The notes: generated from the sequence alone by a model not told the origin. Shown: positions 750 through 26,273, numbered from the stretch's first letter. The stretch: DNA of 64,000 nt from Burkholderiales bacterium (GCA_014860445.1 JACZJT010000018.1:13295-77294); one strand, 5' to 3'. A program made the numbers and translations.

Positions 750-759
750 TGATATATCA
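750..759. promoter_or_regulatory. Palindromic candidate operator TGATATATCA (site 1) in the divergent promoter region
   Basis: Perfect 10-bp palindrome inside the near-palindrome ACGATGATATATCAGTCGT (746-764). It lies 78 nt upstream of the PhyH ATG (837) and 92 nt upstream of the divergent TRAP receptor ATG (658). The same core recurs at 13950, 16956 and 20287-20305. Confidence 0.5.
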
Positions 760-836
760 GTCGTATTCGCGCAACATATCACTAGAGTTTCTTGAAAGCA
801 AGCCGGCGTGAAGCAGCCGGCCATAAGGAGGAAGCG

Positions 837-1670
837 ATGCCAATATTGCTCTCGGACGAAGCGGTGCAGCAGTATCACCGCGACGGTTATTGTTTTCCCG
901 TGCCGGTGCTCAGCCGGGACGAAGCGGCGCATTACCGCCACAGCCTGGAGCAGCACGAAGCCAAGACCGGCACCCCGCTGCAAGGCAATTGGCGCCACAA
1001 AACGCACCTGCTCTTTACCTGGGCCGACGAACTCGCACATCATCCGAAAATTCTGGACGCGGTCGAGGACGCAATCGGCCCCGACATCCTGTGCTGGACC
1101 ACCAACTTTTTCATCAAGGAAGCAAGCAATCCGGGGTTTGTTTCCTGGCACCAGGACTCGACCTACTGGGGACTGGACCCGGACGACGTCATCACCGCCT
1201 GGGTCGCGTTCACCGATGTCACCCCCGAGAACGGCTGCATGCAGGTGATTCCCGGCAGCCACAAAGTCAATCAGCTGCCGCACACGGACACCTTCCATAA
1301 GGACAATCTGCTGTCGCGCGGTCAGGAGATCGCTGTGGACGTCGACAAGTCCAAGGCCGTCAGCATGGTGCTGAAGGCGGGAGAAATGTCGCTGCACCAT
1401 ATCAAACTCGTGCACGGATCCGACCCCAATCGCAGCAAGGATCGGCGCATCGGTCTTGCGATCAGATATATCCCCACTCATGTGCGCCAGACCAAGGTGC
1501 GCGATTCGGCCATGCTGGTGCGCGGCACCGACAAATACCACAACTTCGACTACGAGCCGCGCCCGCAAGCGGACCTGGACGAAGCCGCACTACGCGCCCA
1601 TGCCGACGCGGTTGAGCGGCAGGTGAAAGCGCTGTACCAAGGCACAAGCAAGCAGGAATTCCGTGCCTGA
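837..1670 (+). CDS. Phytanoyl-CoA dioxygenase (PhyH) family Fe(II)/2-oxoglutarate oxygenase, paralogue 1
   Basis: ORF 792-1670 trimmed to the ATG at 837, which is preceded by AAGGAGGAAGCG. PhyH-like sequence with an HxD (WHQDSTYW) and a distal His (LHHIKLVHGS) forming a facial triad. Confidence 0.88.
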   Translation: MPILLSDEAVQQYHRDGYCFPVPVLSRDEAAHYRHSLEQHEAKTGTPLQGNWRHKTHLLFTWADELAHHPKILDAVEDAIGPDILCWTTNFFIKEASNPGFVSWHQDSTYWGLDPDDVITAWVAFTDVTPENGCMQVIPGSHKVNQLPHTDTFHKDNLLSRGQEIAVDVDKSKAVSMVLKAGEMSLHHIKLVHGSDPNRSKDRRIGLAIRYIPTHVRQTKVRDSAMLVRGTDKYHNFDYEPRPQADLDEAALRAHADAVERQVKALYQGTSKQEFRA

Positions 1671-1696
1671 GCGCACAAGGTAACAAAGGAGTGAAG

Positions 1697-2560
1697 ATGG
1701 CTGAAGAACGCAAGAAACTGACTGTTCCGGATCTCAAAGAGGCGAAGAAATCAGGACGCAAGCTCGCGATGGCTTCGATTCCAGACTATCCATCCGCAGT
1801 ATGGGCCGAGCGCGCCGGGCTGGATATTCTGGGTGTCGGCGACAGCCTGGGTATGGTGAGCTACGGATTTTCCAATACCCTGCCGGTAACCGTGGACATG
1901 ATGATCCAGCACTGTCAGGCGGTACGCCGGGGCGCACCGAACACTTTTAACCTGGTTGCCATGCCCTACGGCAGTTATCCCAACCCGGACATTGCGGTGA
2001 TGAACGCGCTGCGTTTCATGAAGGAAGGCGGCGTCGACTGCGTGAAAATACAAGGCGGACGCGATAAGTTTCCCATCCTGAAAGCCTTGGTCGACTCGGG
2101 CGTGCCGATGATGAGCCACGTCGGCATGTGCCCTCATTTCGTGCACCAGTACGGCGGCTTCAAGCTGCAGGGCAAGACCGCGGATGAAGCGCTGAAAATC
2201 ATCGACGACGCGATCGCCATCCAGGAAGCAGGCTGCATCGGCTTTGAAATCGAAGCGGTGCCTGCGCCGGTAGCGCAGGCGGTGGACGCGGCGGTGGACA
2301 TATTCACTTTCGGCATCGGTGCGGGCAGCGCCAGCTGCGGCCAGCTGCTGCTTGCTTTCGATCTGCTCGGCGTGTTCGATCAGTTCAAACCGAAATTCAC
2401 CAAGCGCTATGCCAACATCTCGCAGATCGCGGTGGATGCGCTGAAGACCTATGCCGCCGAGGTGCGCAGCGGCCAGTTTCCCGACGCCGATCACAGCTAC
2501 GCGATGAAGCCCGAAGAACTCGCGCGACTGGAGCAGGCCATCGGCAGGAAACTGCAATAA
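1697..2560 (+). CDS. 3-methyl-2-oxobutanoate hydroxymethyltransferase (PanB/ketopantoate hydroxymethyltransferase) family protein, paralogue 1
   Basis: ATG at 1697 after AAAGGAG. Sequence ..DYPSAVWAERAGLDILGVGDSLGMVSYGFSNTLPVTVDMMIQHCQAVRRGAP..MPYGSY.. is colinear with PanB-family proteins. It is a paralogue of 19256-20137. Confidence 0.85.
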   Translation: MAEERKKLTVPDLKEAKKSGRKLAMASIPDYPSAVWAERAGLDILGVGDSLGMVSYGFSNTLPVTVDMMIQHCQAVRRGAPNTFNLVAMPYGSYPNPDIAVMNALRFMKEGGVDCVKIQGGRDKFPILKALVDSGVPMMSHVGMCPHFVHQYGGFKLQGKTADEALKIIDDAIAIQEAGCIGFEIEAVPAPVAQAVDAAVDIFTFGIGAGSASCGQLLLAFDLLGVFDQFKPKFTKRYANISQIAVDALKTYAAEVRSGQFPDADHSYAMKPEELARLEQAIGRKLQ

Positions 2561-2589
2561 AAAACGGCGCGGAATCCGCGCCGTTTGAT
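2559..2589. terminator. Bidirectional rho-independent terminator between convergent genes
   Basis: AAACGGCGCGG-AAT-CCGCGCCGTTT gives an 11-bp stem (2562-2586) flanked by an A-run and T-run, between the PanB-like stop (2560) and the ABC binding-protein stop (2607). Confidence 0.65.
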
Positions 2590-2606
2590 GCACCAGACGA
2601 GGGAAA

Positions 2607-3917
2607 TCAGCCGTAATAGCGTTTGGCGCGCTTTTCGGCTTCGGCCGCCGCCTCTTTCGCGCTCTTCTGTCCCAGACAGGCGGATGCAAACATGTCGACT
2701 ACGATCCAGTCGGCCATGCAGGCTGCAGATGCATAGCCCAGGCTGCCGGCATAGCTATGCGGCTGCATACGCTCGACCACGCCCTTGAACGGCAGATATT
2801 TCGGGTCATCGTTCCAGAACTTGTTGTTGTCATAGGCCTTGAGCGGGTGGCTGACATAGCCGAGAGACGCGGCCTGCCAGGGCTCGTATTGTTCGCGTTC
2901 CCACATGAAGCGCAGGTACTCCTTGGCCGCATTCGGATACTTGCTGTACTTGAACACCATCGCCTGCGAGAGCAAGTGCAGTTCGGTCGGCCGGCCCACC
3001 GGTCCCACCATCATCGGCGCGTGGTTCGTGTCAGCGGCAACCGCCTTTTTGGCTGCATCAGTGGAATTCTTCCCCGCGTAATAGATCGAAATTCCATTCG
3101 AGGTCAGGCTGATCTTGCCTTCAAGGAAGGCGTTGTTGTTGGATACCCCGCTCCACCCCCCCGTGCCCTCGATGAAGGTCTTGGACAACTCTTGCAGGTA
3201 CTCGATGGCCTTGATGGTTTCCGGGCTGTTGATCGCGACCTGATTCTTATCGTCCACCATCTTGCCGCCGAATCCCCAGAGTATGTTGTGCATCCAGGTT
3301 TCCGAGTCGCCGGTCGCGTGCGACAAGGCGAAACCCGGGGGGTGGCCGTTCTTTTTCAGTGCTTGGCAGAGCTTGAGGTAATCATCGAAGTTGGTCGGAA
3401 ATTTGCTGAACCCGGCCTCTTTCACCCAGGACTCGCGATAAGTGAGCAGTGCGCCGGACGCGCCCAGCGGCAGGCCGATCCAGCGGCCTTTCTTGGTCGT
3501 ACCATAGGTGCGCGCCGTGGGAAACCAGCCGCCGTATTTCTTGCCCAGGTAATCGGCGAGGTCGGTCAGGTCGACCAGTTTTTCCGGGTAAAGATGGGGA
3601 TCGTCGAGCCAGCCAACAATGACGTCGGGGCCCGCGCCGACGTTTGCGGCCACCGCCGCTTTCGGCCGCACGTCTTCCCAGTTCTCGTTGTCCGTGCGCA
3701 CGGGAATGCCGTATTTTTCACTGAACTTCTTCGTATTGGCCAGCCACATGTCTTCGTCAGGCTGCACAAATCGCTTCCAGCGCAGCACGCGCAGCTTGGC
3801 GCCCTTCTCCGGTTTGAAGCTGGTCTGCGCCTGCGCGCTCTTGATCCAGAACATCGGTCCCATTGTGGCCAATGCACTCATGCCACCGACGATTCTCCGC
3901 CTGGTCTGATTTGTCAT
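2607..3917 (-). CDS. ABC transporter substrate-binding protein (extracellular solute-binding family 1, sugar/polyol type)
   Basis: 436-aa ORF with AAGGAG upstream. N-terminal signal MTNQTRRRIVGGMSALATMGPMFWIKSAQA. Co-located with MalF/MalG-type permeases and a MalK-type ATPase. Confidence 0.88.
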   Translation of the reverse strand: MTNQTRRRIVGGMSALATMGPMFWIKSAQAQTSFKPEKGAKLRVLRWKRFVQPDEDMWLANTKKFSEKYGIPVRTDNENWEDVRPKAAVAANVGAGPDVIVGWLDDPHLYPEKLVDLTDLADYLGKKYGGWFPTARTYGTTKKGRWIGLPLGASGALLTYRESWVKEAGFSKFPTNFDDYLKLCQALKKNGHPPGFALSHATGDSETWMHNILWGFGGKMVDDKNQVAINSPETIKAIEYLQELSKTFIEGTGGWSGVSNNNAFLEGKISLTSNGISIYYAGKNSTDAAKKAVAADTNHAPMMVGPVGRPTELHLLSQAMVFKYSKYPNAAKEYLRFMWEREQYEPWQAASLGYVSHPLKAYDNNKFWNDDPKYLPFKGVVERMQPHSYAGSLGYASAACMADWIVVDMFASACLGQKSAKEAAAEAEKRAKRYYG

Positions 3918-3944
3918 TCCAATCTCCTTTGGTTGAAAAGCAGT

Positions 3945-4823
3945 CTATTTGGCGACTTTGCTCACTTCAAAAAACCGCTTCGCCGAAGCGGTTTGGTTCT
4001 CGTAAATCGACCCCGGATTCAGCGCCGGCGGCAGGGGCATGCGCACCGGGCAATCGACCATGCGCGGAACGATGCTCTCCTTGCCGCACAGCAGACGTCC
4101 TTTGAATTCATCGTAATCGGGAATCCCCATCAGCGGAAACGCGTCAGCCGCTGACGCTTCATACAACAACAGTCCTCGCGACCGGTCCGAGGTGTTCTGC
4201 GCCGACCCATGCACGACGCGCACATGGTGAAATGAGCAGGATCCGGCCGACCCCACGCAAGGGACCGCGTCCGCGAAGCGCAGGCCGGCGGCCTCGAAGT
4301 CCATGGCGCCGCAAAAGCGCCCATCGTCGCCATGATGGTCGTAGGTGGGCCCTTTGTGCGTTCCGGGAAGGATGTACAGCGCTCCGTTTTCGACCGTCGT
4401 ATCGTCGAGCATGACGCCGACGGCAAGCAGGTCGTCGTTGGTGTGCGGGTAAAACGCCCAGTCCTGATGCCATTCCACCGGAGAGCCGAAATGGGGCGCT
4501 TTCAGGTTGAGCTTGGAGCCGTGCAGGCGCACGCCGTCACCAAGCAGATCCCGAAGAATTCCGATCAGTTTGGGCGAACGCAGGAAATCGGCGAAAACCG
4601 GATTGACCAGATGCGGCGTCTTGATGCGGCGCACGCGCGGTTCCTCGCTGCTGTGCCCTGGCTCCAGATCGTATACCTTGTCATGGGTCCGGACGGCGCG
4701 CGAGCGCTCCACCAGGTCCGCAAGCACCTTTTTCATTTGTGCCCGCACCGCTTCGTCGAGCACGCTTTCTACAACGATTGCACCCACTTCCTTGTATTCA
4801 TCGATTTGTTTCTTCGACAGCAT
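3945..4823 (-). CDS. PhyH family Fe(II)/2-oxoglutarate oxygenase, paralogue 2
   Basis: ORF 3945-4841 begins at a TTG; I place the start at the ATG at 4821-4823 (MLSKKQIDEYKE..). HxD motif VEWHQDWAFY and distal His FHHVRVVHGS. The gene is embedded between ABC transporter genes. Confidence 0.85.
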   Translation of the reverse strand: MLSKKQIDEYKEVGAIVVESVLDEAVRAQMKKVLADLVERSRAVRTHDKVYDLEPGHSSEEPRVRRIKTPHLVNPVFADFLRSPKLIGILRDLLGDGVRLHGSKLNLKAPHFGSPVEWHQDWAFYPHTNDDLLAVGVMLDDTTVENGALYILPGTHKGPTYDHHGDDGRFCGAMDFEAAGLRFADAVPCVGSAGSCSFHHVRVVHGSAQNTSDRSRGLLLYEASAADAFPLMGIPDYDEFKGRLLCGKESIVPRMVDCPVRMPLPPALNPGSIYENQTASAKRFFEVSKVAK

Positions 4824-4888
4824 GATTTTCAACACCTCCAATAACGGCGACTACGGGACAACACGCAAACGCAGGAGCGAATTCCTGC

Positions 4889-5791
4889 TTACTCCTTCAC
4901 CGCGCCGGTCATGCCGGCAACGTAGTATTCAACGAAAAACGAGTACAGCAGCGCGACCGGGAGCGACCCAAAGAGCGCGCCCGCCATGAGCGAGCCCCAG
5001 TGATAGACGTCGCCGTCCACAAGCTCGGTGAGGACTCCGACGGGAACCGTCTTGTTTTCCGACGATGAAATGAAGGTCAGCGCATAGATGAATTCATTCC
5101 ACGACAGGGTGAAGGCAAAAATACCCGCAGAGATCAGCCCGGGAACCGCCAGCGGCAGCACGATTTTCCACAGAATCTGCACGCGCGTCGCACCGTCGAT
5201 CAGGGCGCACTCCTCCAGTTCGAAGGGGATGGATTTGAAATATCCCATCAACAACCAGGTACAGAACGGGATCAGGAATGTGGGGTAAGTGAGAATCAGC
5301 GCCCAGCGCGAGTCGAACAGCCCCAGTTTGTACACCATGGTCGCCAGGGGAATGAAAAGGATCGAAGGCGGCACAAGATAGGCGCCGTAGATGCTCAATC
5401 CTATCCAGCGGCTGCCTTTGAAGCGCAGGCGCTCGATCGCGTACGCGGCGAGCACGCTGGCAAAAAGCGAGATGGCCGTGGCGACCACGGACACCAGAAA
5501 AGTGTTCCACAACCAATCCGGATAGGAAGTCTCGAACAGCAGCTTCTTGATATTGTGCAGCGTGGGATTGAACACCCAGAACGGGCTGTTCTTTTCGTAG
5601 TTGTAGATATCGTCGTTGCTCTTGAAGGTTGTGATGGTCATCCAATAGAACGGGAACAGCAGGATGAAGGTGAACACTGCGAGCGGCAGGTAGACGGTCA
5701 CGAATTTGCGTTGCCGCGTCAGAAGGAAATCCATGCCTCCCTCTGAATACACTTTTTCCTCGACACTCTGGACGACGGGTTTCTTGCTCAT
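4889..5791 (-). CDS. ABC transporter permease (MalG/UgpE-like)
   Basis: 300-aa polytopic membrane protein with a typical carbohydrate-uptake permease sequence (..ALIDGATRVQILWKIVLPLAVPGL..). Confidence 0.9.
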   Translation of the reverse strand: MSKKPVVQSVEEKVYSEGGMDFLLTRQRKFVTVYLPLAVFTFILLFPFYWMTITTFKSNDDIYNYEKNSPFWVFNPTLHNIKKLLFETSYPDWLWNTFLVSVVATAISLFASVLAAYAIERLRFKGSRWIGLSIYGAYLVPPSILFIPLATMVYKLGLFDSRWALILTYPTFLIPFCTWLLMGYFKSIPFELEECALIDGATRVQILWKIVLPLAVPGLISAGIFAFTLSWNEFIYALTFISSSENKTVPVGVLTELVDGDVYHWGSLMAGALFGSLPVALLYSFFVEYYVAGMTGAVKE

Positions 5792-5795
5792 GGGC

Positions 5796-6719
5796 TCAGT
5801 CCTTGCTTCCCTGCTGCCAGGCGCGACGCTGCAGCCCGAAAAAGCTGATCAGAATGGCGGCGATCAAAAACGGCACCATCGCCATCGCGATTGCGGCGCC
5901 CTCTGCGAGCTGTCCGCCCGGTATGGCGCGCTGGAACGACAGCGTCGCCATCAGGTGCGTGGCGTTCACCGGACCACCGCGCGTGATTACATAGATGAGC
6001 TGGAAATCGGTAAACGTGAACAGCACCGAGAACGTCATCACGATCGCGATGATCGGGGTAAGCAGTGGATAAGTGATAAACCGGAAACGCTGCCATGGCG
6101 TCGCGCCGTCTATAGTCGCGGCTTCATATAGTGAGGGCGAAATCGTCTGCAGGCCGGCAAGCAGGGAGATCGCGACGAAGGGTATGCCGCGCCAGATGTT
6201 CGCGACCACGACCGAAATGCGCGCATTCCAGCGGTCACCGAGAAAGTCGATATAGTGGTCGATCAACCCGGCCTTGACCAGCACCCAGGAGATGATGGAA
6301 AACTGGCTGTCGTACATCCACCAGAACGCGATCGCGGATAACGTCGTAGGCACGATCCATGGAAGCAGAATGATCGCGCGCATGAAGGACTTCAGCGCAA
6401 TGTTCTGGTTGAGCAGCAGCGCAAGAATCAATCCCAGGACAAACTTGAAGACGCTTGCAACGGCTGTGTAGCCGATGGTGTTGAATACCGACAACCAGAA
6501 GACGCTGTCGTTGAACAGCGATCGGTAGTTTTCAAGACCAATGAATACGCCGGGACGCCCGATCTTGGTATCGGTAAGCCCGAGCCACAGACCCAGGCCG
6601 AGCGGATAAGTCAGAAATACAAGCAGAATCGCCGCGGCCGGCAACATGAAAACGAGCCCCAGCGCGTTGGCGCTGTTGTTGAAGCGGTCTAGCAGACTTT
6701 GGCTGGAGGATTTGGCCAA
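5796..6719 (-). CDS. ABC transporter permease (MalF/UgpA-like)
   Basis: 307-aa membrane protein carrying the EAA-loop-like segment ..YEAATIDGATPWQRFRFITYPLL... There is a 4-nt gap to the next permease gene. Confidence 0.9.
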   Translation of the reverse strand: MAKSSSQSLLDRFNNSANALGLVFMLPAAAILLVFLTYPLGLGLWLGLTDTKIGRPGVFIGLENYRSLFNDSVFWLSVFNTIGYTAVASVFKFVLGLILALLLNQNIALKSFMRAIILLPWIVPTTLSAIAFWWMYDSQFSIISWVLVKAGLIDHYIDFLGDRWNARISVVVANIWRGIPFVAISLLAGLQTISPSLYEAATIDGATPWQRFRFITYPLLTPIIAIVMTFSVLFTFTDFQLIYVITRGGPVNATHLMATLSFQRAIPGGQLAEGAAIAMAMVPFLIAAILISFFGLQRRAWQQGSKD

Positions 6720-6769
6720 GATTTACCCCGGGCGCGGCGCCTACACGCTGCCGCAGGAATCGCGGCAAC

Positions 6770-7846
<1,077 letters not shown>

Positions 7847-7873
7847 GCGAGTCCCCTAATACAGCTTGCGGCT

Positions 7874-9811: not shown

Positions 9812-9843
9812 CTGTGTTTTCTCCTAAGTTTGGTGCACCGGGG

Positions 9844-10764
9844 TTACATCGTCGCGCCGGCGCCGCGCGCTGCAGCCGCGTCTTCTTTCTGCTGCAGGGA
9901 AAAGATCGAAGTGTAGCCGCCCGACCAATCGGGCGGGATCAGGCAGGGACGCGGGTCGTGGTGCGCGAACGCGGCGCGCTTGCCGCGCAAAATCGCCTGG
10001 TCGTGCTTGGGCTTGATCGGATTTGCGGTGTACGGGAAAGCGTCGGCCGAAGTCAGCGTGTACAGCAGCAGCGGCCGGCCCAGGTCCGAATCGTTGCGCG
10101 GTGAACCATGTATGGTGCGGCAGTTGTGCAAGGTCAGCGATCCGGCAGGGCCTGTCAAATACTTGGCCTTGGACAATTCGACCTTTTCGATATCCCGCTC
10201 GCTGAGGCAGCCGACCCAATTGCCCCGGTCGTCGTACTGGGTGAGCATGGGCTCGATTAGATGGCTTTTCGGAATCACGCCCAGCGGTCCCTGGTCCATG
10301 CCGCAGTCGTAAATGTAGGTACCCACCGTAAGCGGTGAATAGTTAGTATGCGGCCAGAAGGAAATGTCGTAATGCCATTTCACTTCCTCCCCGCCTTTTT
10401 TCCATTTGAAGTTGAGCTTGGAGTGGTGAAACTTGACGTCAGGCCCGACCAGGTCGGCTACTGCATCGGGCATGACCGACTTGGTGCAGTAATCCCAGAA
10501 CACCGGATGATGCTCGGCCGGGTTCGACACCCGGCGCAGGCGCGGCGCGTCGGGGCGGTGGTCTGGCTCCAGGTCGAAAATGACATCCGACTTCGCCACC
10601 TTGCGGCTGCGCTCGATCATTTCCTCGGTGGCGTCGCGCAGTTTCCTGATCCACTCGTCGCCGATGATCTTTTCCAGCAGGATATAGCCGTCCGCGAAAT
10701 AGGACTCGCGCTGGGACTGGGTCAGCACGCGCGGCGGGATCGCGAGAATTTGTTCAGGTGTCAT
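9844..10764 (-). CDS. PhyH family Fe(II)/2-oxoglutarate oxygenase, paralogue 3
   Basis: 306 aa with GGAGG upstream. HxD motif VKWHYDISFW and distal His LHNCRTIHGS. Confidence 0.88.
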   Translation of the reverse strand: MTPEQILAIPPRVLTQSQRESYFADGYILLEKIIGDEWIRKLRDATEEMIERSRKVAKSDVIFDLEPDHRPDAPRLRRVSNPAEHHPVFWDYCTKSVMPDAVADLVGPDVKFHHSKLNFKWKKGGEEVKWHYDISFWPHTNYSPLTVGTYIYDCGMDQGPLGVIPKSHLIEPMLTQYDDRGNWVGCLSERDIEKVELSKAKYLTGPAGSLTLHNCRTIHGSPRNDSDLGRPLLLYTLTSADAFPYTANPIKPKHDQAILRGKRAAFAHHDPRPCLIPPDWSGGYTSIFSLQQKEDAAAARGAGATM

Positions 10765-10825
10765 GATTCGCCTCCATAGTTAAACGGCGTCCGTTCGAAC
10801 TGCCAAGCCAACCCGTCCATCACTG

Positions 10826-12145: not shown

Positions 12146-12645
12146 CAGGCGTGTCCGTACTTGAGTCTGCGCACGCTTTTGATCGCCTCGGCAACTATCT
12201 GCAGCGAAAGCAGCACGAATGCGACCAGGAATACGATGCGATACGGCCACACCGGCAGGTTCAGCGCCGACGATCCGCTGTGTTCATTGCTCTGGTAACC
12301 CGCCACCAGATAAAGATACAACTCGAAAGTAAGCCAGAGCATCAATGGCAGGGTGACTGTGTAGCCGAGGAGATCGATGACCGCGCGGGTGCGCAACGAG
12401 AACTTGCCGCTGAACACGTCGATGCGTATGTGTTCGCCCTCGCGCAGCGTGTAGGCCATGCCGAGCAGGAAATGCGAGCCTGTGAGGAGGTAGCCGACCT
12501 CGTACGCCCAGACGGTCGGCGCGTTCATCGCGTAGCGGGAGAACACTTCATAGCAGGTCGCCAGCACCAGCGGAATCAATGCAAAGGCCGCCAATATGCC
12601 GACACCGCAGGTGATGCGTTCCAGGTTCTTGATGAGCGCATCCAT
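12145..12645 (-). CDS. TRAP transporter small permease (DctQ family)
   Basis: ORF 12145-12711 trimmed to MDALIKNLERITCGVGILAAF.. (ATG 12643-12645). It has about four TM segments and the expected position between the DctP and DctM genes. Confidence 0.82.
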   Translation of the reverse strand: MDALIKNLERITCGVGILAAFALIPLVLATCYEVFSRYAMNAPTVWAYEVGYLLTGSHFLLGMAYTLREGEHIRIDVFSGKFSLRTRAVIDLLGYTVTLPLMLWLTFELYLYLVAGYQSNEHSGSSALNLPVWPYRIVFLVAFVLLSLQIVAEAIKSVRRLKYGHA

Positions 12646-12750
12646 TGCGCGGTTCCCCCTACGCGTAACAGCCAACGCCCGGCGTGGCGATGCCCGTTCG
12701 GACTGAGGCAATCGCGGCGCGCATCGGGCAATAGTGATTCACGGACCAAC

Positions 12751-12782
12751 CCAAAAAAAGATGGGGTGCCCGCGCACCCCAT
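12751..12782 (-). terminator. Hairpin plus T-run between the TRAP receptor and permease genes (partial terminator or mRNA stabiliser)
   Basis: On the minus strand, ATGGGGTGC-GCGG-GCACCCCAT is followed by CTTTTTTTGG. It sits in the 155-nt gap after the dctP-type stop (12801). Confidence 0.5.
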
Positions 12783-12800
12783 CGATGAGGCACAAGCCGG

Positions 12801-13862
12801 TCAGTTCCTAACCTTGACCGTGCGCCAGGCAGATGCGCCTTTCCACAGCGCGTCCATTTCCCGCTGGCTCTTCAATACCTTGGCAAACCAGGGGAACTTA
12901 CCTTCCTTGGAGATCTTGTCCGCCCATTTCTCGCCGATCTCGCGCCCTGCGTACTGCACTTCGGGCGAAAGCTCGATAAGCGTGTTGCCGGCTTTTTTGT
13001 AAAAGTCCAGCGCCTTGGCATCTTCCACCCCGACCTTCATCCAGAAGTCGAGCGTGACCAGTCTGGCCGTGGTTTCTACCAACTTCTTGTCCGCGTCCGA
13101 CAGTTTCGCCCAGGCTTCCTTGTTGATCACCAGTTCGAACGGCGCGGTAGGCTGGTGCACACCCGGATAGATGATGTACTTGGCGATCTTATGAAAGCCC
13201 ATGGAGATATTCTCGTACATCGTGCCCCATTCCGTGGCGTCGATGGCGCCGCGCTCGAGCATCGGATAGACCTCGCCGCCCGGAGTCGTCACCGGCGCAG
13301 CGCCAAGGTCCTTTGCCATTTCCAGCCAAGCCCCGGCAGTACGCATTTTCAGGCCCTTCAGATCGGCCAGCGTCTTGACCGGCTTTCTCGAATGCAGGAA
13401 GGCTTCGGCCGTGCGCGCGCCCAGGGGGAACGATATTACGCCCGCGGTTTCCTCGCGGAACTGGCGCTGCATTTCGACACCGCCATCCTCGTACAACCAG
13501 TGCAGCATGCGCTCGGTGTCGAACGATCCCGCATAGCCACCGAACAGCACCGTGGTCGGGTCCTTGCCCCAGTCGTAACCCATCCAGGTATGCCCCATTT
13601 CGGCGATACCGTTCTTGACTGTTTCCGGCACTTTCAGCGCGTTGCCCAGCGCGCCACCCGGGAACACCTGAATCTTGAAGCGCCCGCCCGAGAGTTCGCC
13701 CATTTTTTGGGCAAAGGCTTTGGCGCCGAGGTCCATCAACGGACCGCCGCCCCAGCCGGTGGCCATTTTCCAATTGTAGGTCGCGCCCTGCGCGCTTACG
13801 CCGGTCGATATCGCCAGCGCCACTGCTGCAGCGCCGATTTTAAAGAAATCACGTTTTTTCAT
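12801..13862 (-). CDS. TRAP transporter solute-binding protein, DctP family
   Basis: ORF trimmed to MKKRDFFKIGAAAVALAISTGVSAQG.. (ATG 13860-13862, AGGAGGAGAG upstream). The mature part begins ATYNWKMATGWGGGP..RFKIQVFPGGALG.., typical of the mannitol/chloroaromatic-type TRAP receptors. Confidence 0.9.
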   Translation of the reverse strand: MKKRDFFKIGAAAVALAISTGVSAQGATYNWKMATGWGGGPLMDLGAKAFAQKMGELSGGRFKIQVFPGGALGNALKVPETVKNGIAEMGHTWMGYDWGKDPTTVLFGGYAGSFDTERMLHWLYEDGGVEMQRQFREETAGVISFPLGARTAEAFLHSRKPVKTLADLKGLKMRTAGAWLEMAKDLGAAPVTTPGGEVYPMLERGAIDATEWGTMYENISMGFHKIAKYIIYPGVHQPTAPFELVINKEAWAKLSDADKKLVETTARLVTLDFWMKVGVEDAKALDFYKKAGNTLIELSPEVQYAGREIGEKWADKISKEGKFPWFAKVLKSQREMDALWKGASAWRTVKVRN

Positions 13863-13949
13863 TTCTCTCCTCCTAGTGGATTGATACTGCACAATCTGGC
13901 TGCTTTGCTGCTAGTTTATTGCACTACCCATTCGCCCGCAGTGATTCTG

Positions 13950-13959
13950 TGATATATCA
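13950..13959. promoter_or_regulatory. Palindromic candidate operator TGATATATCA (site 2)
   Basis: Perfect copy of the 10-bp palindrome, 88 nt upstream of the dctP-type ATG (13862). This is the head of the long minus-strand operon 13862->2607. Confidence 0.5.
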
Positions 13960-14067
13960 TCCATATGTCTGACGCATCGTACGCGCCCATTGCCGGATTT
14001 TCAAGCCGCGCCGGAAAATTTCATTGAATACCCGAACGCGATCGAACGCGTCCCTGCGTGGCCACTA

Positions 14068-15987
14068 TCAGATCGCTGCTGCTAGCATCAGGCGCTTTGC
14101 CAGTTCTACCGCCTCGCCCGCATCGCCCGCATAACCGTCCGCGCCGATGTCGTGCGCAAATTTTTCATTTACTGCCGCGCCGCCTACGATGATCTTTACC
14201 CCGTCTCGCAGACCGCTTGCCGCAAGCGCCTGGATCACTTTCTGCATTTCTGTCATGGTCGTCGTCAGCAATGCGGATAAACCCACGATGTCCGGTTTGT
14301 ATTCCGCCACCGCCTTGACGAACGCCTCGGCCGGAAGATTGATCCCCAGATCCTTCACCTCGAAGCCCACGCCGCGCAACATGGTAACCACCATGTTCTT
14401 GCCGATGTCGTGAAAATCGCCCCTCACCGTGCCGACCAGGGCCTTGCCGCTGATCTCGCGCTTGCCTGCAGCCAGATGCGGCTCCAGAACCTTTAGTCCC
14501 TCGTTCATCGCCCTGGCCGAGAGCAGCACCTGCGGAATGAACAATTCGCCGCTGCCGAATTTGACGCCTATGGCCTGCATCGTATCCAGCATCCCGTGAT
14601 CGAGTATCTGTTTCGCGCTGAGGTTCCGGTCCAGCAGGGTCTGGACGTGGGCACCGATTTCCCTGTGCTTGCCTTTGACCACGGCATCGCGCACCAGGCT
14701 GTAGTCCGCGTCCGGCGCGCCCTGCGGCTTCACCCTGGCCGCGGCTTCTTCCACCTGTGCTGACGACAGCGGACGCGCCGCCCCAGCTTCGAGCGGCAGC
14801 CGCGCCTCTTTTTCGACGCGCTCGCCTATGCGGATGAGCCGCTCGAATACCGCGTTCGGCGGCGTGGTGTCGGCTATACCGAGGACAAAGCGCTTGCCCG
14901 GTGCGATCACCTTGAACAGGTGGTCCAGATACGCTTCGAACTCTGCATCCGTGGCCGATTCGGCCAGGATCATATTGGAGGGAATGCCGCCGAAGATCGT
15001 TAGCTTGTCGCCCCAGCGCTGGTAATATTCTTCGATCTTCACCTTCGTCATCGGATAGGGACAGATTGCCTCGGCCACGTGCATGCCCGAGTCGCGGATC
15101 AGGTCCATCAGCCCGAAGTTCTCGCCGTCGCAGTGCACCAGGGCGACTTTGCCTTTTTCGCCCAGGGCTGCCGAGGCCTTGCGCACCCAAGGGGTGATCT
15201 CTTTCTCGAAATATTCCGGGTAGGTGATCATGTCATCGACGTTGGCGCCCCACAAAACCAGTTCCGCGGGCGAATCGGCGATGATCTTTAGGCCTTGCTC
15301 GAAGAAATTCGCGACGCTGCCAGCCAGCGCGCGCATTTCCTTCTGGCAGTCGTTGTAATGGAAGTAGAAATCGGTCGCGTCCAGGAACTCCTTCTGGATG
15401 TGATGCATGGGCGAACACGCCAGCCCGATCATGGTACCCGGCACACCGTCGTCGCCGACATATTTCTGCCACGCCTGAAAGCGCTCGTAGCTCGGGAAAA
15501 GCTCGATGTTCTCGAACAGGTAGCCCACGACCTTGTAGTCTTCGGGCCGCTTGATCACGTGCTCCTCGATCCAGGTGATCGAAGCGCCGGCCCGCCGCAT
15601 TTCGTCGGAGTACATGGTCTTGGTACTGACGCTGCCCACCGGCGTATGGTAGAGCACGGTCGTGTAGTCACCTTCGCGGCGCACCTCGATGTCGATGGTG
15701 GGCGCGAATTTGAAATCGAACGCCATTTCTTTCAAGCGGTACAGCCCGAGGGCGCGGTGCAGGGTGTCCTCCGGGTTGTCGACCTTGAGAAACTCGGGCA
15801 CGATCTTGTGCAGTGCCCAACCCTGCGCGCGCGAGATCTCGTCCTGGGTCCGGCCCTTGTGCTGCGCCGGCAGGGTGTCGAAGGCGACGTTGGCGTTGTA
15901 CCAGAGATCGATACGCGGCACATAGGGGAGCGTGTCCGGCATCTCCCCTTTCAGCGCCATCAGAATTCTTTGCTTGTGGCTAGGCAT
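14068..15987 (-). CDS. Fusion protein: URO-D-family methyltransferase domain plus B12-binding domain (CmuA-type architecture), paralogue 2
   Basis: ORF 14068-15993. The second ATG (15987; MPSHKQRILMALKGE) aligns with the MYTHKSRMLAAFRGE start of paralogue 1 and follows GAGGAA. It is colinear with 7874-9811, at roughly two-thirds identity by eye. GDFHDIG at 14401-14421, SALLTTTM and IVGGAA are present. The URO-D part carries ..LVHCDGENFG.. and ..ICPYPM... Confidence 0.85.
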   Translation of the reverse strand: MPSHKQRILMALKGEMPDTLPYVPRIDLWYNANVAFDTLPAQHKGRTQDEISRAQGWALHKIVPEFLKVDNPEDTLHRALGLYRLKEMAFDFKFAPTIDIEVRREGDYTTVLYHTPVGSVSTKTMYSDEMRRAGASITWIEEHVIKRPEDYKVVGYLFENIELFPSYERFQAWQKYVGDDGVPGTMIGLACSPMHHIQKEFLDATDFYFHYNDCQKEMRALAGSVANFFEQGLKIIADSPAELVLWGANVDDMITYPEYFEKEITPWVRKASAALGEKGKVALVHCDGENFGLMDLIRDSGMHVAEAICPYPMTKVKIEEYYQRWGDKLTIFGGIPSNMILAESATDAEFEAYLDHLFKVIAPGKRFVLGIADTTPPNAVFERLIRIGERVEKEARLPLEAGAARPLSSAQVEEAAARVKPQGAPDADYSLVRDAVVKGKHREIGAHVQTLLDRNLSAKQILDHGMLDTMQAIGVKFGSGELFIPQVLLSARAMNEGLKVLEPHLAAGKREISGKALVGTVRGDFHDIGKNMVVTMLRGVGFEVKDLGINLPAEAFVKAVAEYKPDIVGLSALLTTTMTEMQKVIQALAASGLRDGVKIIVGGAAVNEKFAHDIGADGYAGDAGEAVELAKRLMLAAAI

Positions 15988-16133
15988 GTGCATTCCTCGA
16001 TTTTCGTCGCTGGCTGCTCAATCGGCAGTCATGTAACCCTGCCCGGGACTGCTTCCGCGCCGCGTAACATACCAGTAATACGCACGATGCCGATTTGATG
16101 TGCATCAAAGTGCCTCGAGGAAGTCGGCCGGGC

Positions 16134-16898
16134 TCAGACCGCTTGCTGCGATAGGGGTTTCAGCGTGTGTCTGGCGATCGCCTGCTTGAGTTCGGGCTTG
16201 ATGTGCGATTCGTCGTAGCCGTTAAATACGTGCCCTATCAGCCCGCGCTTCAGGTCGCTCGTGCCCATCAGCCAGTCGGCAATGGGAAAAGTCAGGTTCA
16301 TATTGATGTCCATCATTATGCCCTGGTTGTGGTGCGCGGTATGGTGGCGGCGGATGGTGTTGACGAACGGCATGTTGCGCACGAACCAGTTTTCGTGGAC
16401 ATGGCAGCAGTAGTGGAAAGTCTCGTAGATCAGGTACTGGCCGACCATGGTGATGAGCAGGATGTAGCCGGCGTTGGCGTTGACCAGCCAGCCAAGCGCA
16501 AACGCGAACGGCGTACCAAGCGCGATGAACGTAAACAGGGCGCGCCAGGGGAAGAAAATGATGCGAAACTCGCGCGTCGAATCCACCGTCATCACCCCGT
16601 CGGTGAAGTATTGATGGTGCTGCCGCGTATGTCGGTCGTAGATCGCCCGCAACGCCCACACGTCGATCAGCCGGTGCATGACGTACTTGTGGATCCACCA
16701 TTCGAACAGGTTGGAGAAAGCGAACACCGGCACCACCAGCAGCCATTCCCAGGCGGCGCCCTGCAGGCGCGACACGCAAAAGGCGATGACGGCGAGACCG
16801 ACCGTGTACATCACCCCGATGTGCACGATGCCGCTATACAGAGGATGGATCTCGGCGATGTATTGCTCGCGAAATTGCTTCTGGCGTTCTGACATCAT
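16134..16898 (-). CDS. Fatty acid hydroxylase/sterol desaturase superfamily membrane di-iron oxygenase
   Basis: 254 aa with GAGGAGG upstream. Histidine boxes HKYVMH, HTRQHHQY, HYCCHVH and HHTAHH lie among hydrophobic segments. Confidence 0.8.
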   Translation of the reverse strand: MMSERQKQFREQYIAEIHPLYSGIVHIGVMYTVGLAVIAFCVSRLQGAAWEWLLVVPVFAFSNLFEWWIHKYVMHRLIDVWALRAIYDRHTRQHHQYFTDGVMTVDSTREFRIIFFPWRALFTFIALGTPFAFALGWLVNANAGYILLITMVGQYLIYETFHYCCHVHENWFVRNMPFVNTIRRHHTAHHNQGIMMDINMNLTFPIADWLMGTSDLKRGLIGHVFNGYDESHIKPELKQAIARHTLKPLSQQAV

Positions 16899-16955
16899 GA
16901 TGTGCCTCCTCTTCTGTGCGCCCCCGATCTATGCCGGAAGCGTGTGCTGAACGAC

Positions 16956-16965
16956 TGATATATCA
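16956..16965. promoter_or_regulatory. Palindromic candidate operator TGATATATCA (site 3)
   Basis: CTGATATATCAG is a perfect 12-bp palindrome (16955-16966) in the context ACGACTGATATATCAGC. It lies 58 nt upstream of the hydroxylase ATG (16898). Confidence 0.5.
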
Positions 16966-17025
16966 GCTATATATTTGCCGATATTACCCGCGACGCAGGG
17001 ATATTTCAAGCTGTTCGGACACGCC

Positions 17026-18405
17026 TTATGCAATGACCCGGACGCGGGCAGGGGCGACGCCCAGCCCGGCGCCGTCGCGATTCAGCAGGTCGCGCACTGC
17101 CGCGCCGTCAATTTGCCGCGGTGCGAGCTTTTCCCGGAGCGCCAGCGCCGCTGCGTGGCCGATGGCGTGGCCGTAGGAAAAACACTGCGCGGTGACCCGC
17201 GCAGAGGCCATCGCCTCATGCTCGGCGGACAGGCAGCGGCCCGCCGCGAGCAGCGATTCGCCACGCGCGGGCACGAAGCATTCGTAAGGAATTTCGTAGT
17301 AATCGTCGATCAGCCATGAAAGGCGCGGCCTCGCCCCTGCGTGCAACTCGATCGGCCAGGCGGAGCGTGCAATGCCGGTGGCGAACTTTGTGCCGTGCAT
17401 TACGTCGTGGTTTGCCAGCACCGCCGTTCCCGCGATCTGGCGCGACTGGCGCACGCCTACCTGCACACCGGTGTCGTTCACCCAGCTGCGTTCGCAACCT
17501 TGAAGGTGGTCGCGGAAAAAACGCGCATATTCGGATACCTGCTTGCGACCCTCGATTTCCGCCTCGGTAAAGTCGCGTACCAAAATACTATTCAGTTCGC
17601 GCCCGTCTGCACCGGTGATGCGCGTGCAGTTGCACAGCAGTTCGCCCTCGCGCGGCGACGGGAACAGGAAGATCTTGGCGCGAGGCAACCGGTAGCGGCC
17701 CGCGGCATTCAAATCGACGATCTGCTTCGACACGGCCTCGCCTAGGATGGTGTCCGGCCCGTAGGCGGCGGTAAAGCGCGCTACATCCACGCCCTGGATG
17801 CGAAAAATCATGGTTGGATTCTGCACGGTGCCGTCGTGGCCGATGCGCGTCGCAAACCCGGCCATCGCGGCGAGGTCGGCGTCGCCGCTCGCATCCACTG
17901 TGAGCCCGGCTTCGATCTGGAATTTTCCTTGTTTGGTGAACGCCTGCACCCCGGCGACGCGCTCTCCGCCCTCGAGCAGCACTTCCGTAGCAAGCGTATG
18001 GAACAGTACCGTCACCCCGGCGTCGGCGAGCATGGCATCGGCAACGTTGCGCCATGCAAGCGGGTCGTGTACCAGACTGTAGGTCTTGCCGTAGCGCACC
18101 GGGGGAGTAAGGCCGCCGCAGGCGCTCATGCGTTGCGCAAATTCGGCCGCAAAGCCATGCACCAGCTGATCGGGGTTCGCGCCGGGGATATCACTTGCCA
18201 TATACATTCCGCAAATGGTTCCTGACATACCGGCGACGGCGCCGCCACCGCAGAACCCGTAGCGTTCGAGCAACGTGACCTTGACGCCCTGGCGCGCCGC
18301 GGTGATTGCCGCGGCCACCCCTGCAGCGCCACCGCCCACGACGAGCACGTCCGTGCCGATGCGCTCCCGCGGGCGCAGGTCGGTGATGGTGCTGTTCGAA
18401 TTCAT
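17026..18405 (-). CDS. FAD-dependent oxidoreductase
   Basis: 459 aa with AGGAGG upstream. N-terminal dinucleotide fold DVLVVGGGAAGVAAAITAARQG.KVTLLER. Confidence 0.8.
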   Translation of the reverse strand: MNSNSTITDLRPRERIGTDVLVVGGGAAGVAAAITAARQGVKVTLLERYGFCGGGAVAGMSGTICGMYMASDIPGANPDQLVHGFAAEFAQRMSACGGLTPPVRYGKTYSLVHDPLAWRNVADAMLADAGVTVLFHTLATEVLLEGGERVAGVQAFTKQGKFQIEAGLTVDASGDADLAAMAGFATRIGHDGTVQNPTMIFRIQGVDVARFTAAYGPDTILGEAVSKQIVDLNAAGRYRLPRAKIFLFPSPREGELLCNCTRITGADGRELNSILVRDFTEAEIEGRKQVSEYARFFRDHLQGCERSWVNDTGVQVGVRQSRQIAGTAVLANHDVMHGTKFATGIARSAWPIELHAGARPRLSWLIDDYYEIPYECFVPARGESLLAAGRCLSAEHEAMASARVTAQCFSYGHAIGHAAALALREKLAPRQIDGAAVRDLLNRDGAGLGVAPARVRVIA

Positions 18406-18563
18406 TTAGCCTCCTGCTGCACTCAGGGCGCACCTACCGGATTCTGGGCAAGGCGGTACATTGGTTCGACATCCGCGATGTCGTTCGTCGCTTGGCGGTT
18501 TCAAGTCAAAGCGATTCATGCGGGAACGAACGGGTCGCGCGCATTTCTCTGCTTTCACGCCAC

Positions 18564-19259
18564 TTAGAAATCCGCCATCACCGTATCGCGGGTGAATTTC
18601 GCGACGGTATCGATCAGTTTGTCCATCGCCTTGCCCGCCCCCGCCGGGTCGCCGGCGCCGATGGCGCGCGCGATGTCCGCGTGTAACTTGGCGGTGAGCG
18701 GCAGGTCCGCCGCCTGTTTGTAATGGATGTACCAGAAGCGCCGCGACAGCGAGTGCATCAAACTCATGGCACCAGCGGCGAATTCGTTTCGCGCCGCCTT
18801 GACCGAGAACTCGTTGAACTCGCGATCGACGCGCATGAACGCAACATCATCGTTGGTCTTGGCGCTCTTTTCGAATTCGCGCGCAAGTTCGAGGAAGCGC
18901 GTGCGCTCCTCGGCGTTTGCGCGGCGGGCAGCGCTTCTCGCCACCAAGCGCTCCACCTCGCGCCGGACTTCCAGCAGACGCAACTGGCTCTTGATGTTGA
19001 TCTCCGAAACGATGATGCCGCGCCGCGGCAGAATGGTGACCAGGCGCTCGCGCGCGAGGCGCTGCAAAGCCTCGCGTATGGGCGTGCGCCCGATTCCGAG
19101 GCTCTGCGACAGCGCAGTCTCGGACACCGCGCTGCCCGGCAGCAGCGTCAGGGTGACGATCATCTCCTCCAGATCGCGGTAGGCGCGATCAGTGAGCGAA
19201 AGGCCGGCGCCCTTCGTTGTGCGCGCGGGCTTCGTTGCGGTTTTTTTACGCGCGCTCAC
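18564..19259 (-). CDS. GntR family transcriptional regulator (FadR/FCD-type C-terminal domain)
   Basis: 231 aa. The winged-HTH segment ..LPGSAVSETALSQSLGIGRTPIREALQRLARERLV.. is followed by an all-helical effector domain. Its start overlaps the PanB-like stop by 4 nt. Confidence 0.88.
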   Translation of the reverse strand: MSARKKTATKPARTTKGAGLSLTDRAYRDLEEMIVTLTLLPGSAVSETALSQSLGIGRTPIREALQRLARERLVTILPRRGIIVSEINIKSQLRLLEVRREVERLVARSAARRANAEERTRFLELAREFEKSAKTNDDVAFMRVDREFNEFSVKAARNEFAAGAMSLMHSLSRRFWYIHYKQAADLPLTAKLHADIARAIGAGDPAGAGKAMDKLIDTVAKFTRDTVMADF

Positions 19260-20137
19260 TGGTGCTTGCGCTTTTCGATCAGGTCGAGGAATTTTTCATA
19301 CTCCTTTTGGTCCACACCGTAGCTGTGGTCATCGTCCGGGAATGTGCCACCTTTGACGTCTGCAATATAGGCCTTGATGCCGTTGACCGCCACTTCGGTC
19401 AGATTGGCGTAACGCTTGGTGAACTTCGGCTTGAAATCGGTGAACACGCCCAGCAGATCGTGGCACAGCAATATCTGGCCGTCGGTGCCGACGCCGGCGC
19501 CTATGCCTATGGTGGGAATTTCAAGCTGCTGCGAGATCGCCGCCGCGATCTTGGCCGGCACCGCCTCGAACTCGAGCATGAAACAGCCCGCGTCTTGGAT
19601 CGCAAGCGCATCGCCGAGGATTTTCATCGCCGCCTCTGCGCTGCGCCCCTGGATCCTGAAGCCGCCGAACATGGCTATGGTATGCGGTGTGAGGCCGATA
19701 TGCGAGGCGGTGGGAATGCCCGCGTCCACCAGCGCTTTGAGTATGTGCGCCTGGGACTTTCCGCCCTGCGGTTTGACCGCGTCGCTACCGGCCTCCTGCA
19801 TGAAGCGCGTCGCGTTGGTAAGCGCCCGGTCCACAGTATTGTAGCTCTGGTAGGGCATGCATCCGAGCACGAAGGTCGCGGGCGCACCGCGGCGGATGGC
19901 GGCGGCGTGCATGACCATCATGTCCATGGTCGCCGGGATCGTGTTGGGGTGGCCGTGCGCGATCATCGCAAGGCTGTCGCCGACCACGGCAACGTCGACC
20001 CCCGCCGTTTCGGCCCACTTGGCGGCGGTGTAGTCGGGCACCGACATGTACACCATCTTCTCGCCGCTGGTCTTGGAATCGCGGATTTCCTGGATTGTGC
20101 GCTTTTTCCGCTCTGCGCTTGCCGCTGCCTGTGCCAA
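19256..20137 (-). CDS. PanB (ketopantoate hydroxymethyltransferase) family protein, paralogue 2
   Basis: 293 aa. TTG start at 20135-20137, 5 nt after AGGAGG. Sequence ..DYTAAKWAETAGVDVAVVGDSLAMIAHGHPNTIPATMDMMVMHAAAIRRGAP..MPYQSY.. is colinear with 1697-2560. Confidence 0.85.
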   Translation of the reverse strand: MAQAAASAERKKRTIQEIRDSKTSGEKMVYMSVPDYTAAKWAETAGVDVAVVGDSLAMIAHGHPNTIPATMDMMVMHAAAIRRGAPATFVLGCMPYQSYNTVDRALTNATRFMQEAGSDAVKPQGGKSQAHILKALVDAGIPTASHIGLTPHTIAMFGGFRIQGRSAEAAMKILGDALAIQDAGCFMLEFEAVPAKIAAAISQQLEIPTIGIGAGVGTDGQILLCHDLLGVFTDFKPKFTKRYANLTEVAVNGIKAYIADVKGGTFPDDDHSYGVDQKEYEKFLDLIEKRKHQ

Positions 20138-20286
20138 TTTGACCTCCTAGGCTGAGTCTGATATGCAGACAGTATATCAATTGTCTGTCCAGCCGGGCGG
20201 CCGCTCGCCTCGTTATAGGCAGTTTCCGCTGCTCCTGCGCGCCGCGCTTGTTTTGTGTGATTTGATCCAGATCAAATGCATGCCTC

Positions 20287-20303
20287 ATATATCACTGATA
20301 TAT
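20287..20303. promoter_or_regulatory. 17-bp perfect palindrome ATATATCACTGATATAT containing two overlapping near-copies of the TGATATATCA operator (site 4)
   Basis: TCATATATCA (20285-20294) and TGATATATTA (20296-20305) each differ from the consensus by one base. The site lies 51-67 nt upstream of the corrinoid-protein ATG (20354). A weaker half-site region (TGATATGCAGACAGTATATCAA, 20159-20180) sits just upstream of the divergent PanB-like/GntR unit. Confidence 0.5.
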
Positions 20304-20353
20304 TATGTGCTTGTCCAAAGATTCAGACGGGCGAAAACCAGGGAGACACGACG

Positions 20354-20989: not shown

Positions 20990-21012
20990 GCAACCAGAAA
21001 GGAGATACGCAA

Positions 21013-22089: not shown

Positions 22090-22096
22090 GGCCACC

Positions 22097-22894: not shown

Positions 22895-22931
22895 GCCGGC
22901 CGGCTCGCGCTGAGCTCACCCGTCTACAGCC

Positions 22932-24827: not shown

Positions 24828-24830
24828 AAC

Positions 24831-26264: not shown

Positions 26265-26273
26265 ACGCCGGCC

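Follow-up and report, generated by a model that had tools for sequence, protein, structure and literature searches.

Palindromic sites as predicted operators of a local GntR/FCD repressor in a Burkholderiales gene cluster

We analyzed a 64,000-nucleotide stretch of DNA, hereafter the window, from a Burkholderiales bacterium (GCA_014860445.1, JACZJT010000018.1:13295-77294), in which copies of the 10-bp palindrome TGATATATCA lie in front of the transcription units of one gene cluster. On sequence evidence it is highly probable that these sites are operators of the GntR/FCD regulator encoded within the same cluster (18564-19259), through which it would act negatively. The regulon prediction is sound and of an ordinary kind, namely an auto-regulated local repressor of the GntR/FCD repressor–operator class. 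The less ordinary features are the non-canonical half-site, the operators of 10+1+10 layout that double as extended -10 elements, and the predicted combined control by substrate and oxygen, which splits the oxygenase and B12 routes. No firmer functional link between the genes of an uncharacterized pathway has so far been available than this assignment to one regulon. These genes encode three PhyH dioxygenases, a membrane di-iron hydroxylase, two PanB-like enzymes, two importers and two CmuA-like methyltransferase fusions, and also include a complete corrinoid methyl-transfer operon.

The palindrome is confined to the cluster

Exact copies of TGATATATCA occur in the window at 750-759, 13950-13959 and 16956-16965, positions that a first-pass annotation had already reported, and two one-mismatch copies in the cluster form a pair at 20285-20294 and 20296-20305. 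We could also reproduce that annotation's 17-bp palindrome ATATATCACTGATATAT at 20287-20303, the intergenic location of the sites 50–100 nt before the starts (51–92 nt as measured by us), and the coding occurrence at 1465-1472 as the sole other GATATATC in the window. Its description of a flank, ACGA.TGATATATCAG, shared by the first and third sites was right about the sharing and wrong about the single-strand register: what the two sites have in common is ACGAC-TGATATATCA on opposite strands or, equally, TGATATATCAGTCGT. All four promoter regions that it considered to be marked by the palindrome are indeed marked, and a fifth, degenerate site that together with an FNR-type box occupies ~16065-16108, before the gene that we call fusion-2, had been overlooked. 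Dinucleotide-shuffled versions of the window contained on average 0.52 matches, and five or more matches were seen in none of 100 shuffles.

The organism's own assembly (4.61 Mb in 73 contigs, 61.7% G+C) has only three exact copies of TGATATATCA, all in the cluster. One-mismatch copies number 21, compared with ~30 expected, and the 20285/20296 pair represents the only two of them that lie in the cluster. A position weight matrix (PWM) of 26 columns was derived from 113 sites, all from genera other than the window's own (consensus cTgATATACnaCTGATATATCAGnc). In a scan of both strands, covering 9.2 million positions, the eight top scores (18.9–34.1 bits) all fell within the four promoter regions, and the best score outside them in the whole genome was only 17.2 bits. 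Genome-wide density of the motif, which had been put forward as a test capable of refuting the regulon, therefore does not refute it. Outside the cluster, the genome lacks the motif, as is to be expected of a local regulon.

Operators consist of two phased dyads

The operators found in the window are as follows (PWM scores in bits; here and below, L numbers denote loci of relatives, except for L128, which lies in the window's own genome).

750-759, no strand assigned: site 1, perfect TGATATATCA between the divergent DctP (- strand) and PhyH/PanB-like (837-2560, + strand) genes; score 20.7
13950-13970, - strand: site 2, bipartite CAGACATATGGA-TGATATATCA before the 11-kb unit; score 26.2; conserved in L015 and L017
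16956-16976, - strand: site 3, bipartite AAATATATAGC-TGATATATCA before the hydroxylase gene; score 34.1, the genome's best; conserved in L014-L023
20285-20305, + strand: site 4, double TCATATATCA-c-TGATATATTA before the corrinoid operon; scores 27.1 and 27.0
20159-20179, - strand: split operator TGATAT-N9-ATATCA (TGATATACTgtctgCATATCA on the - strand) in the promoter of the PanB-like/GntR operon
16065-16085, - strand: degenerate fifth operator GTGCGTATTAC-TGGTATGTTA before fusion-2

The window sites share one scheme, in which two 10-bp dyads are separated by a 1-bp spacer to give an element of ~21 bp, and each dyad has at least one half matching TGATAT/ATATCA. At sites 2 and 3 a weak dyad is followed by a perfect one, at site 4 the inner halves are perfect, and at 20159-20179 the outer halves are. 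The bases flanking the palindrome are thus non-random: they hold a second element, (T)GATATAC or GTATATC, offset by exactly 11 bp relative to the corresponding palindrome bases. Since the dyads start 11 bp apart, both lie on one face of the helix, and this arrangement points to two dimers bound on that face at each operator. Site 1 is accompanied by an extra half-site, ATATCA at 776-781, at a distance of 22 bp (two helical turns), and both the palindrome and the extra ATATCA are kept in L015 and L019.

Before the PanB-like/GntR unit, a weaker cluster of half-sites had been noted earlier. The half-sites are there and make up the precise split site at 20159-20179, which is kept in L014, L018 and L020 and has equivalents in L026, L039, L056 and L068. 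The operator before fusion-2 is much better in relatives, where it reads CATATATTGC-TGATATGTTA.

The sites accompany regulator orthologues in two proteobacterial classes

Relatives of the regulator were detected at 553 places in public genomes, and the best 79 loci, amounting to 1.29 Mb from two proteobacterial classes, were taken for analysis. Open reading frames (ORFs) were labelled by BLAST against the proteins of the window, and a gene was considered to have a site if a match with at most two mismatches was present within 200 bp upstream. Regulator orthologues with 55–90% identity are found in the window's own genus (uncultured Burkholderiales), in other Betaproteobacteria and in many Alphaproteobacteria, the latter including Bradyrhizobium lablabi, Afipia broomeae, Tistlia consotensis, Hwanghaeella and Azospirillum; T. 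consotensis and B. lablabi are among the cultured carriers. Absence of the motif from orthologous clusters had been named in the first-pass annotation as grounds for refutation, but these clusters do retain it: 44 exact copies of TGATATATCA lie around the 79 orthologues, compared with at most two for each of 29 palindromes of the same composition. The fractions of genes with an upstream site are given below.

Hydroxylase: 65/71
PanB-like: 29/43
DctP_a: 7/7
Corrinoid protein: 6/6
PhyH_1: 9/16
GntR: 24/88
DctM (internal): 0/24
DctQ (internal): 0/20
RACo (internal): 0/5

The proposal of one regulon under the local GntR/FCD regulator is thereby supported, and the regulator's own operon has a conserved site. 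Two relatives carry an additional gene between the PanB-like gene and the corrinoid genes and retain both promoter-proximal islands; because both outlast the insertion, each island belongs to its own promoter. The inserted gene is folD (methylene-tetrahydrofolate dehydrogenase/cyclohydrolase) in one case (L018 2100-2996, genome G013) and a 272-aa ORF with no Pfam match in the other (L020 2168-2986).

The conserved core of the regulon comprises the hydroxylase, PanB-like/GntR, TRAP and PhyH genes, and also the FAD oxidoreductase. Corrinoid genes are found only in some Burkholderiales lineages and a few others, and are a lineage-specific addition to the regulon. Between Alpha- and Betaproteobacteria (L014-L107), the PanB-like protein (19256-20137) shows ~80–97% identity, the regulator 55–90% and the hydroxylase ~50%; the high conservation of the PanB-like protein suggests strong constraint or recent transfer. 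One metagenome-assembled genome, labelled Nitrosovibrio (L039), has at ~3530-4231 a second GntR paralogue (53% identity) beside a PhyH_1/PanB-like_1/DctP_a module, and the shared intergenic region holds TAACATATCA-tga-ATATGT. In some genomes, this module seems to come with its own copy of the regulator.

Transcription units and promoters

The cluster consists of the following genes and units, labelled according to Pfam.

2-658, - strand: DctP
837-1670, + strand: PhyH (PhyH_1)
1691-2560, + strand: PanB-like (PanB-like_1)
13862-2607, - strand: 11-kb unit of DctP_b-DctQ-DctM, PhyH_3, URO-D::B12 fusion-1, ABC ATPase and two permeases, PhyH_2, and solute-binding protein
15993-14068, - strand: fusion-2
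16898-16134, - strand: FA_hydroxylase-family membrane protein
18405-17026, - strand: FAD oxidoreductase
19259-18564, - strand: GntR/FCD regulator
20137-19256, - strand: second PanB-like gene, its stop overlapping the regulator start
20354-27002, + strand: corrinoid protein, URO-D-type MT1, pterin-binding MT2, RACo activator, MTHFR and DUF1638

With start codons placed at 837, 13862, 20354 and 21013 (the ATG of DctP_b being 13862, not 13892), the sites are 78 nt from the start of PhyH (837), 92 nt from DctP (658), 88 nt from DctP_b, 58 nt from the hydroxylase (16898) and 51 nt from the corrinoid protein (20354). According to Pfam, the GntR/FCD gene is the only transcription-factor gene between 1 and ~28 kb. 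An Rfam scan of the whole window returned three tRNAs only, with no riboswitch or other known RNA in the cluster; therefore, the sites do not belong to any RNA element described so far. Neither an operator nor a promoter-like match is present in the 158 nt that separate the regulator gene from the FAD oxidoreductase gene (18406-18563), and the two genes are probably transcribed together. The oxidoreductase orthologue of Azospirillum (L105) has an exact site of its own, 49 nt upstream. There are also two strong terminator-like hairpins on the - strand, one at 2562-2586 between the convergent ends of PanB-like_1 and the 11-kb operon, and another at 12760-12783, directly after DctP_b and inside that operon. 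The latter is typical of an attenuator that raises the ratio of receptor to membrane subunits.

The first 20 kb contain no more than four sigma-70-like matches. Each of the three perfect sites is abutted by one of these:

722-750, + strand: sigma-70-like TTGACA-17-TACGAT for PhyH_1; 10/12 matches; -35 and -10 kept in relatives
13976-14004, - strand: promoter-like TTGAAA-17-TACGAT; site 2 begins 17 nt downstream of the -10 box
16981-17009, - strand: promoter-like TTGAAA-17-TAATAT; site 3 begins 16 nt downstream of the -10 box; conserved in relatives

The last base of the -10 box in the PhyH_1 promoter is at the same time the first base of site 1, and the predicted start site therefore falls within the palindrome. 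The promoter next to site 2 is kept as GCTTGAAAA...GTACGAT in L015 and L017. The operon of the regulator itself has an extended -10, TGaTATACT (20179-20171, - strand), located 9 nt upstream of the ribosome-binding site region, and the corrinoid promoter has another, TGaTATATT (20296-20304), at site B, the copy at 20296-20305; both of these elements are formed by an operator half-site. In many Alphaproteobacteria, TTGACA is found 17–18 nt upstream of TAATAT-ATCA. Relatives provided 52 predicted promoters, in which the -10 box ends anywhere from 23 bp upstream of the palindrome to 8 bp into it, counted from the first base of the palindrome. The site therefore lies on or just downstream of the -10 box, and this zone is where a bound protein represses. 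When the intergenic regions are aligned within the genus, the operator and the -35 and -10 boxes stand out as conserved islands.

Such closeness to the -10 box raises the question of whether the palindrome could be a mere core-promoter element, that is, an AT-rich extended -10 or discriminator inherited from duplicated promoters and having no dedicated repressor. TGATAT does mimic the extended -10 TGnTAT, and several variants of the palindrome are -10 boxes. The perfect palindrome, however, has no TAnnnT hexamer. It takes G2A (or C9T on the other strand) to create one, a change present in 35/76 one-mismatch sites near orthologues as opposed to 0/19 elsewhere in the genome. In addition, sites 2 and 3 lie 16–17 nt downstream of the -10, and neither dyad symmetry nor second sites phased at 11 bp are promoter features. 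The palindrome is absent from every other promoter in the genome, and it is conserved between classes while its flanks have diverged. We give this explanation almost no credence.

FNR-type boxes mark the corrinoid promoters

In class II FNR/Anr promoters, a TTGAT-N4-ATCAA box is situated ~41.5 nt upstream of the transcription start. Two perfect boxes of this type, both of them conserved, are present in the cluster:

20262-20275, no strand assigned: FNR-type box TTGATccagATCAA in the corrinoid operon promoter
16095-16108, no strand assigned: FNR-type box TTGATgcacATCAA before fusion-2; conserved in L014, L015, L017 and L019

The centre of the first is ~42 nt upstream of where TATATT (20299-20304) would place the start, and the predicted -10 of fusion-2, TATGTT (16071-16066), lies downstream of the second. 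Both corrinoid promoters may be compared with class II FNR promoters, the box being centred ~42 nt upstream of a start that is predicted from the -10 box; they differ in combining the box with a GntR operator on the -10, a combination specific to this cluster. Across the loci, TTGAT-N4-ATCAA boxes precede 16/22 corrinoid lead genes but only 4/387 other genes, and the oxygenase and transporter genes are among those almost devoid of them. The genome contains 27 such boxes and encodes an FNR/Anr-type protein with an N-terminal C-x2-C-x5-C cluster and a central Cys; one of the boxes is near the gene for this protein on contig C7. Judging by these features, the hydroxylase/fusion-2 unit probably has an internal FNR-dependent promoter.

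These promoters also bear on the sign of regulation. The GntR/FCD protein could bind the sites and yet activate transcription, or have a dual role, at some of them instead of being a simple repressor. Site placement varies, being on the -10 at sites 1 and 4 and at ~+9 to +18 at sites 2 and 3, and FadR-subfamily members can activate, as FadR does at fabA. On the other hand, no site is upstream of a -35 box: all are found between the -10 region and ~+25, where the operators overlap extended -10 elements. Moreover, the corrinoid promoters already possess an activator-type FNR box at the class II distance. An activating role therefore seems quite unlikely to us.

Recognition helix of the regulator and the half-site

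The regulator (231 aa) matches the Pfam GntR winged helix-turn-helix (HTH) domain (PF00392; 61 bits against a cut-off of 27, residues 23-84) and the FCD domain (PF07729; 80 bits against a cut-off of 24.3, residues 95-217). All of its relatives in PDB are FCD-type GntR proteins. NCBIfam has no equivalog for it, the best match being phnR_burk with 74 bits against a cut-off of 271. Inspection by eye of the metal-binding Asp/His set of the FCD domain shows D-R-E-F-N in place of the usual D-x3-H and, further on, a single His that is retained (KLHADI).

The recognition region reads S-E-T-A-L-S...G-I-G-R-T-P-I-R-E. HTH position 28 is occupied by Thr48 instead of the canonical Arg (FadR Arg35), which reads the G of TKGT, and position 40 by Pro, in a register set by eye against the G-x-x-R-T-x-x-R-E helix; HMMER aligned FadR over residues 41-99 only. 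Across ~90 orthologues, position 28 is T, A, Q, S, G, H or E, and never R. Operators of the FadR subfamily are normally AT-rich palindromes, TKGT/ACMA, with 2–3 nt between GT and AC; in the co-variation reported for the subfamily, Arg28 goes with a G/C pair and avoids A/T, and Pro40 avoids G/C (PMC4494728). The lack of Arg28 together with Pro40 would therefore lead one to expect A/T rather than G/C (PMC4494728), matching TGAT instead of TGGT. The fit of helix and half-site is consistent with the model, if not decisive.

Might the sites instead be bound by some other protein encoded elsewhere, such as a Fur-like protein or the Rrf2/NsrR-like factor presumed to bind ATATCA-N5-TGATAT in nitric oxide (NO)-stress promoters, with the GntR gene as a mere passenger? 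The motif has no canonical GntR GT/AC core, and genes for NnrS, cytochrome c and haem-copper oxidase have conserved promoters with the same half-sites, both on contig C48 of the window's own genome and in relatives without a GntR orthologue. However, the half-sites described here overlap or are separated by 1 nt, compared with 5 nt in those NO-stress promoters, and the C48 sites score below 12.4 bits, the cut-off of the 40 best matches to the cluster PWM. A global regulator would have targets elsewhere, and none scores above 17.2 bits. In addition, the motif follows the GntR orthologue across two classes and sits on GntR's own promoter, and the recognition-helix residues suit the odd half-site. 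Binding by another protein thus appears improbable.

The C48 promoters (~9860-9890 and ~12320-12350; L128 3860-3890 and 6320-6350) consist of TTGACA/TTGACT-17-TATATT with ATATCAcattaTGATAT and a weaker copy in the spacer. They adjoin genes for Yip1, cytochrome c, an MFS transporter, NnrS and a haem-copper oxidase subunit. This element, with exact TGATATATCA, is kept in same-genus genomes that have no GntR orthologue, and it is probably an NO-stress regulon with a regulator of its own. Exact copies in same-genus genomes without the regulator were also considered as possible regulon members and rejected: some are ATATCA-N5-TGATAT of the NO-stress promoters, and others look random.

Several points weigh against assigning the sites to the local repressor. 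The half-site, TGAT/ATCA with G-N6-C, departs from the canonical TKGT/ACMA operator. The 10-mer also occurs within the unrelated ATATCA-N5-TGATAT and is therefore not exclusive to one protein. At about a dozen orthologous loci, the only sites present have 2–3 mismatches, and the window's own operator before fusion-2 is badly degenerate. The loci were chosen via the regulator gene, so the co-occurrence is with the whole cluster and not with the regulator alone. Finally, public runs containing the locus are DNA metagenomes only, and the promoters are consensus predictions.

Relation to known GntR systems

The closest known system is Atu1419 of Agrobacterium fabrum (VanR group, FCD; PDB 6Z74 and related entries), an auto-regulated FCD-type repressor that controls a catabolic cluster supplying tetrahydrofolate (THF) with one-carbon units (PMC7797058). 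Atu1419 binds as a dimer of dimers to the 10-bp AT-rich palindrome ATGTATACAT, which overlaps -10 boxes, and to a second degenerate palindrome, and it is released by its effector, N5,N10-methylene-THF (PMC7797058). The two systems have in common a 10-bp AT-rich palindrome overlapping -10 boxes, a second degenerate site and auto-regulation, which is predicted for the window's regulator. However, Atu1419 is a weak sequence relative and not an orthologue: the similarity (E 4e-9, residues 25-116) is limited to the DNA-binding part. Furthermore, the Atu1419 palindrome is canonical, with a GT..AC core whose G (position 3) is read by Arg45, and the Atu1419 sites are 109–190 bp apart and bridged by a loop, whereas those in the window are adjacent and phased at 11 bp.

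The canonical FadR-subfamily repressors of local regulons (FadR, PdhR, LldR, GlcC, DgoR and HypR) likewise combine a GntR winged HTH with an FCD domain, AT-rich palindromic operators in the core promoter, auto-regulation and release by a pathway metabolite (PMC4494728), but their operators are TKGT/ACMA read by Arg28, whereas the predicted operators studied here are TGAT/ATCA and the regulator has no Arg28. BioR and NanR are the cases published as non-canonical within the FadR subfamily. At the level of motifs, which alone were compared, the BioR operator (TTATMKATAA) is also a 10-bp palindrome, rich in AT and lacking a GT/AC core, and NanR binds several phased TATA-rich repeats (TGGTATAW direct repeats) cooperatively (PMC4494728); the sequences, regulons and repeat geometry of both are different. 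Among the entries listed in the part of the GntR motif compendium's site tables that we consulted (PMC4494728 supplement), there is no such site for GATATATC, TGATATAT or ATATATCA. A full-text literature search for the TGATATATCA 10-mer gave no bacterial GntR operator among the matches listed, a search for the gene combination found no paper, and a search for DUF1638/corrinoid/GntR returned nothing on regulation.

A proposed mechanism and its wider context

In the mechanism that we propose, a GntR/FCD dimer or, more likely, two cooperating dimers would occupy the 21-bp operator. As the operators are located either on the -10 box and start or 16–17 nt downstream of the -10, the bound protein would block RNA polymerase. 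Binding of a pathway metabolite to the FCD domain would then release the repressor. Five or six units would be co-repressed in this way: DctP; PhyH/PanB-like; the 11-kb TRAP-PhyH-fusion-ABC operon; the hydroxylase (with fusion-2); the regulator's own operon of PanB-like/GntR, possibly extending to the FAD oxidoreductase; and the corrinoid operon. The two promoters leading into corrinoid methyltransferases would additionally need an FNR-type activator. Consequently, the B12 route would be on only when substrate and low oxygen coincide, and the oxygenase units would answer to the repressor alone. The model predicts that the oxygenase and B12 routes are switched by oxygen via FNR.

A broader picture, which we put forward only tentatively and as a whole, is that the operator/regulator pair defines a widespread, uncharacterized regulon of soil and freshwater Proteobacteria with two chemistries and a distinct specificity class. 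A single substrate-sensing FCD repressor may control two alternative chemistries for the same imported acid or acids. In one route, PhyH and di-iron enzymes would carry out an oxygen-dependent hydroxylation, with PanB-like transfer to folate as the next step. The second route would be oxygen-independent methyl transfer by B12, gated by FNR boxes on the same promoters. The repressor class might be characterized by the lack of Arg28, a TGAT half-site, a dimer of dimers and 10+1+10 operators that double as extended -10 elements. By analogy with Atu1419, the repressor might sense a folate one-carbon species or a 2-oxo acid instead of the primary substrate.

The main value of the regulon is the handle it provides on a widespread uncharacterized breakdown pathway. 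The 21-bp operator and the small repressor are usable as a biosensor for the substrate or effector, and cultured carriers exist. The specificity code of GntR/FCD proteins is also extended by a class of non-canonical half-sites, to which a change in the recognition helix corresponds. A GntR/FCD paralogue from another genus (genome G027, L013), which is 33% identical and has the same GIGRTP helix, is encoded downstream of AGATATTAC-gt-TGATATATCA (site at position 1324), and the specificity class may be wider than this orthologue group.

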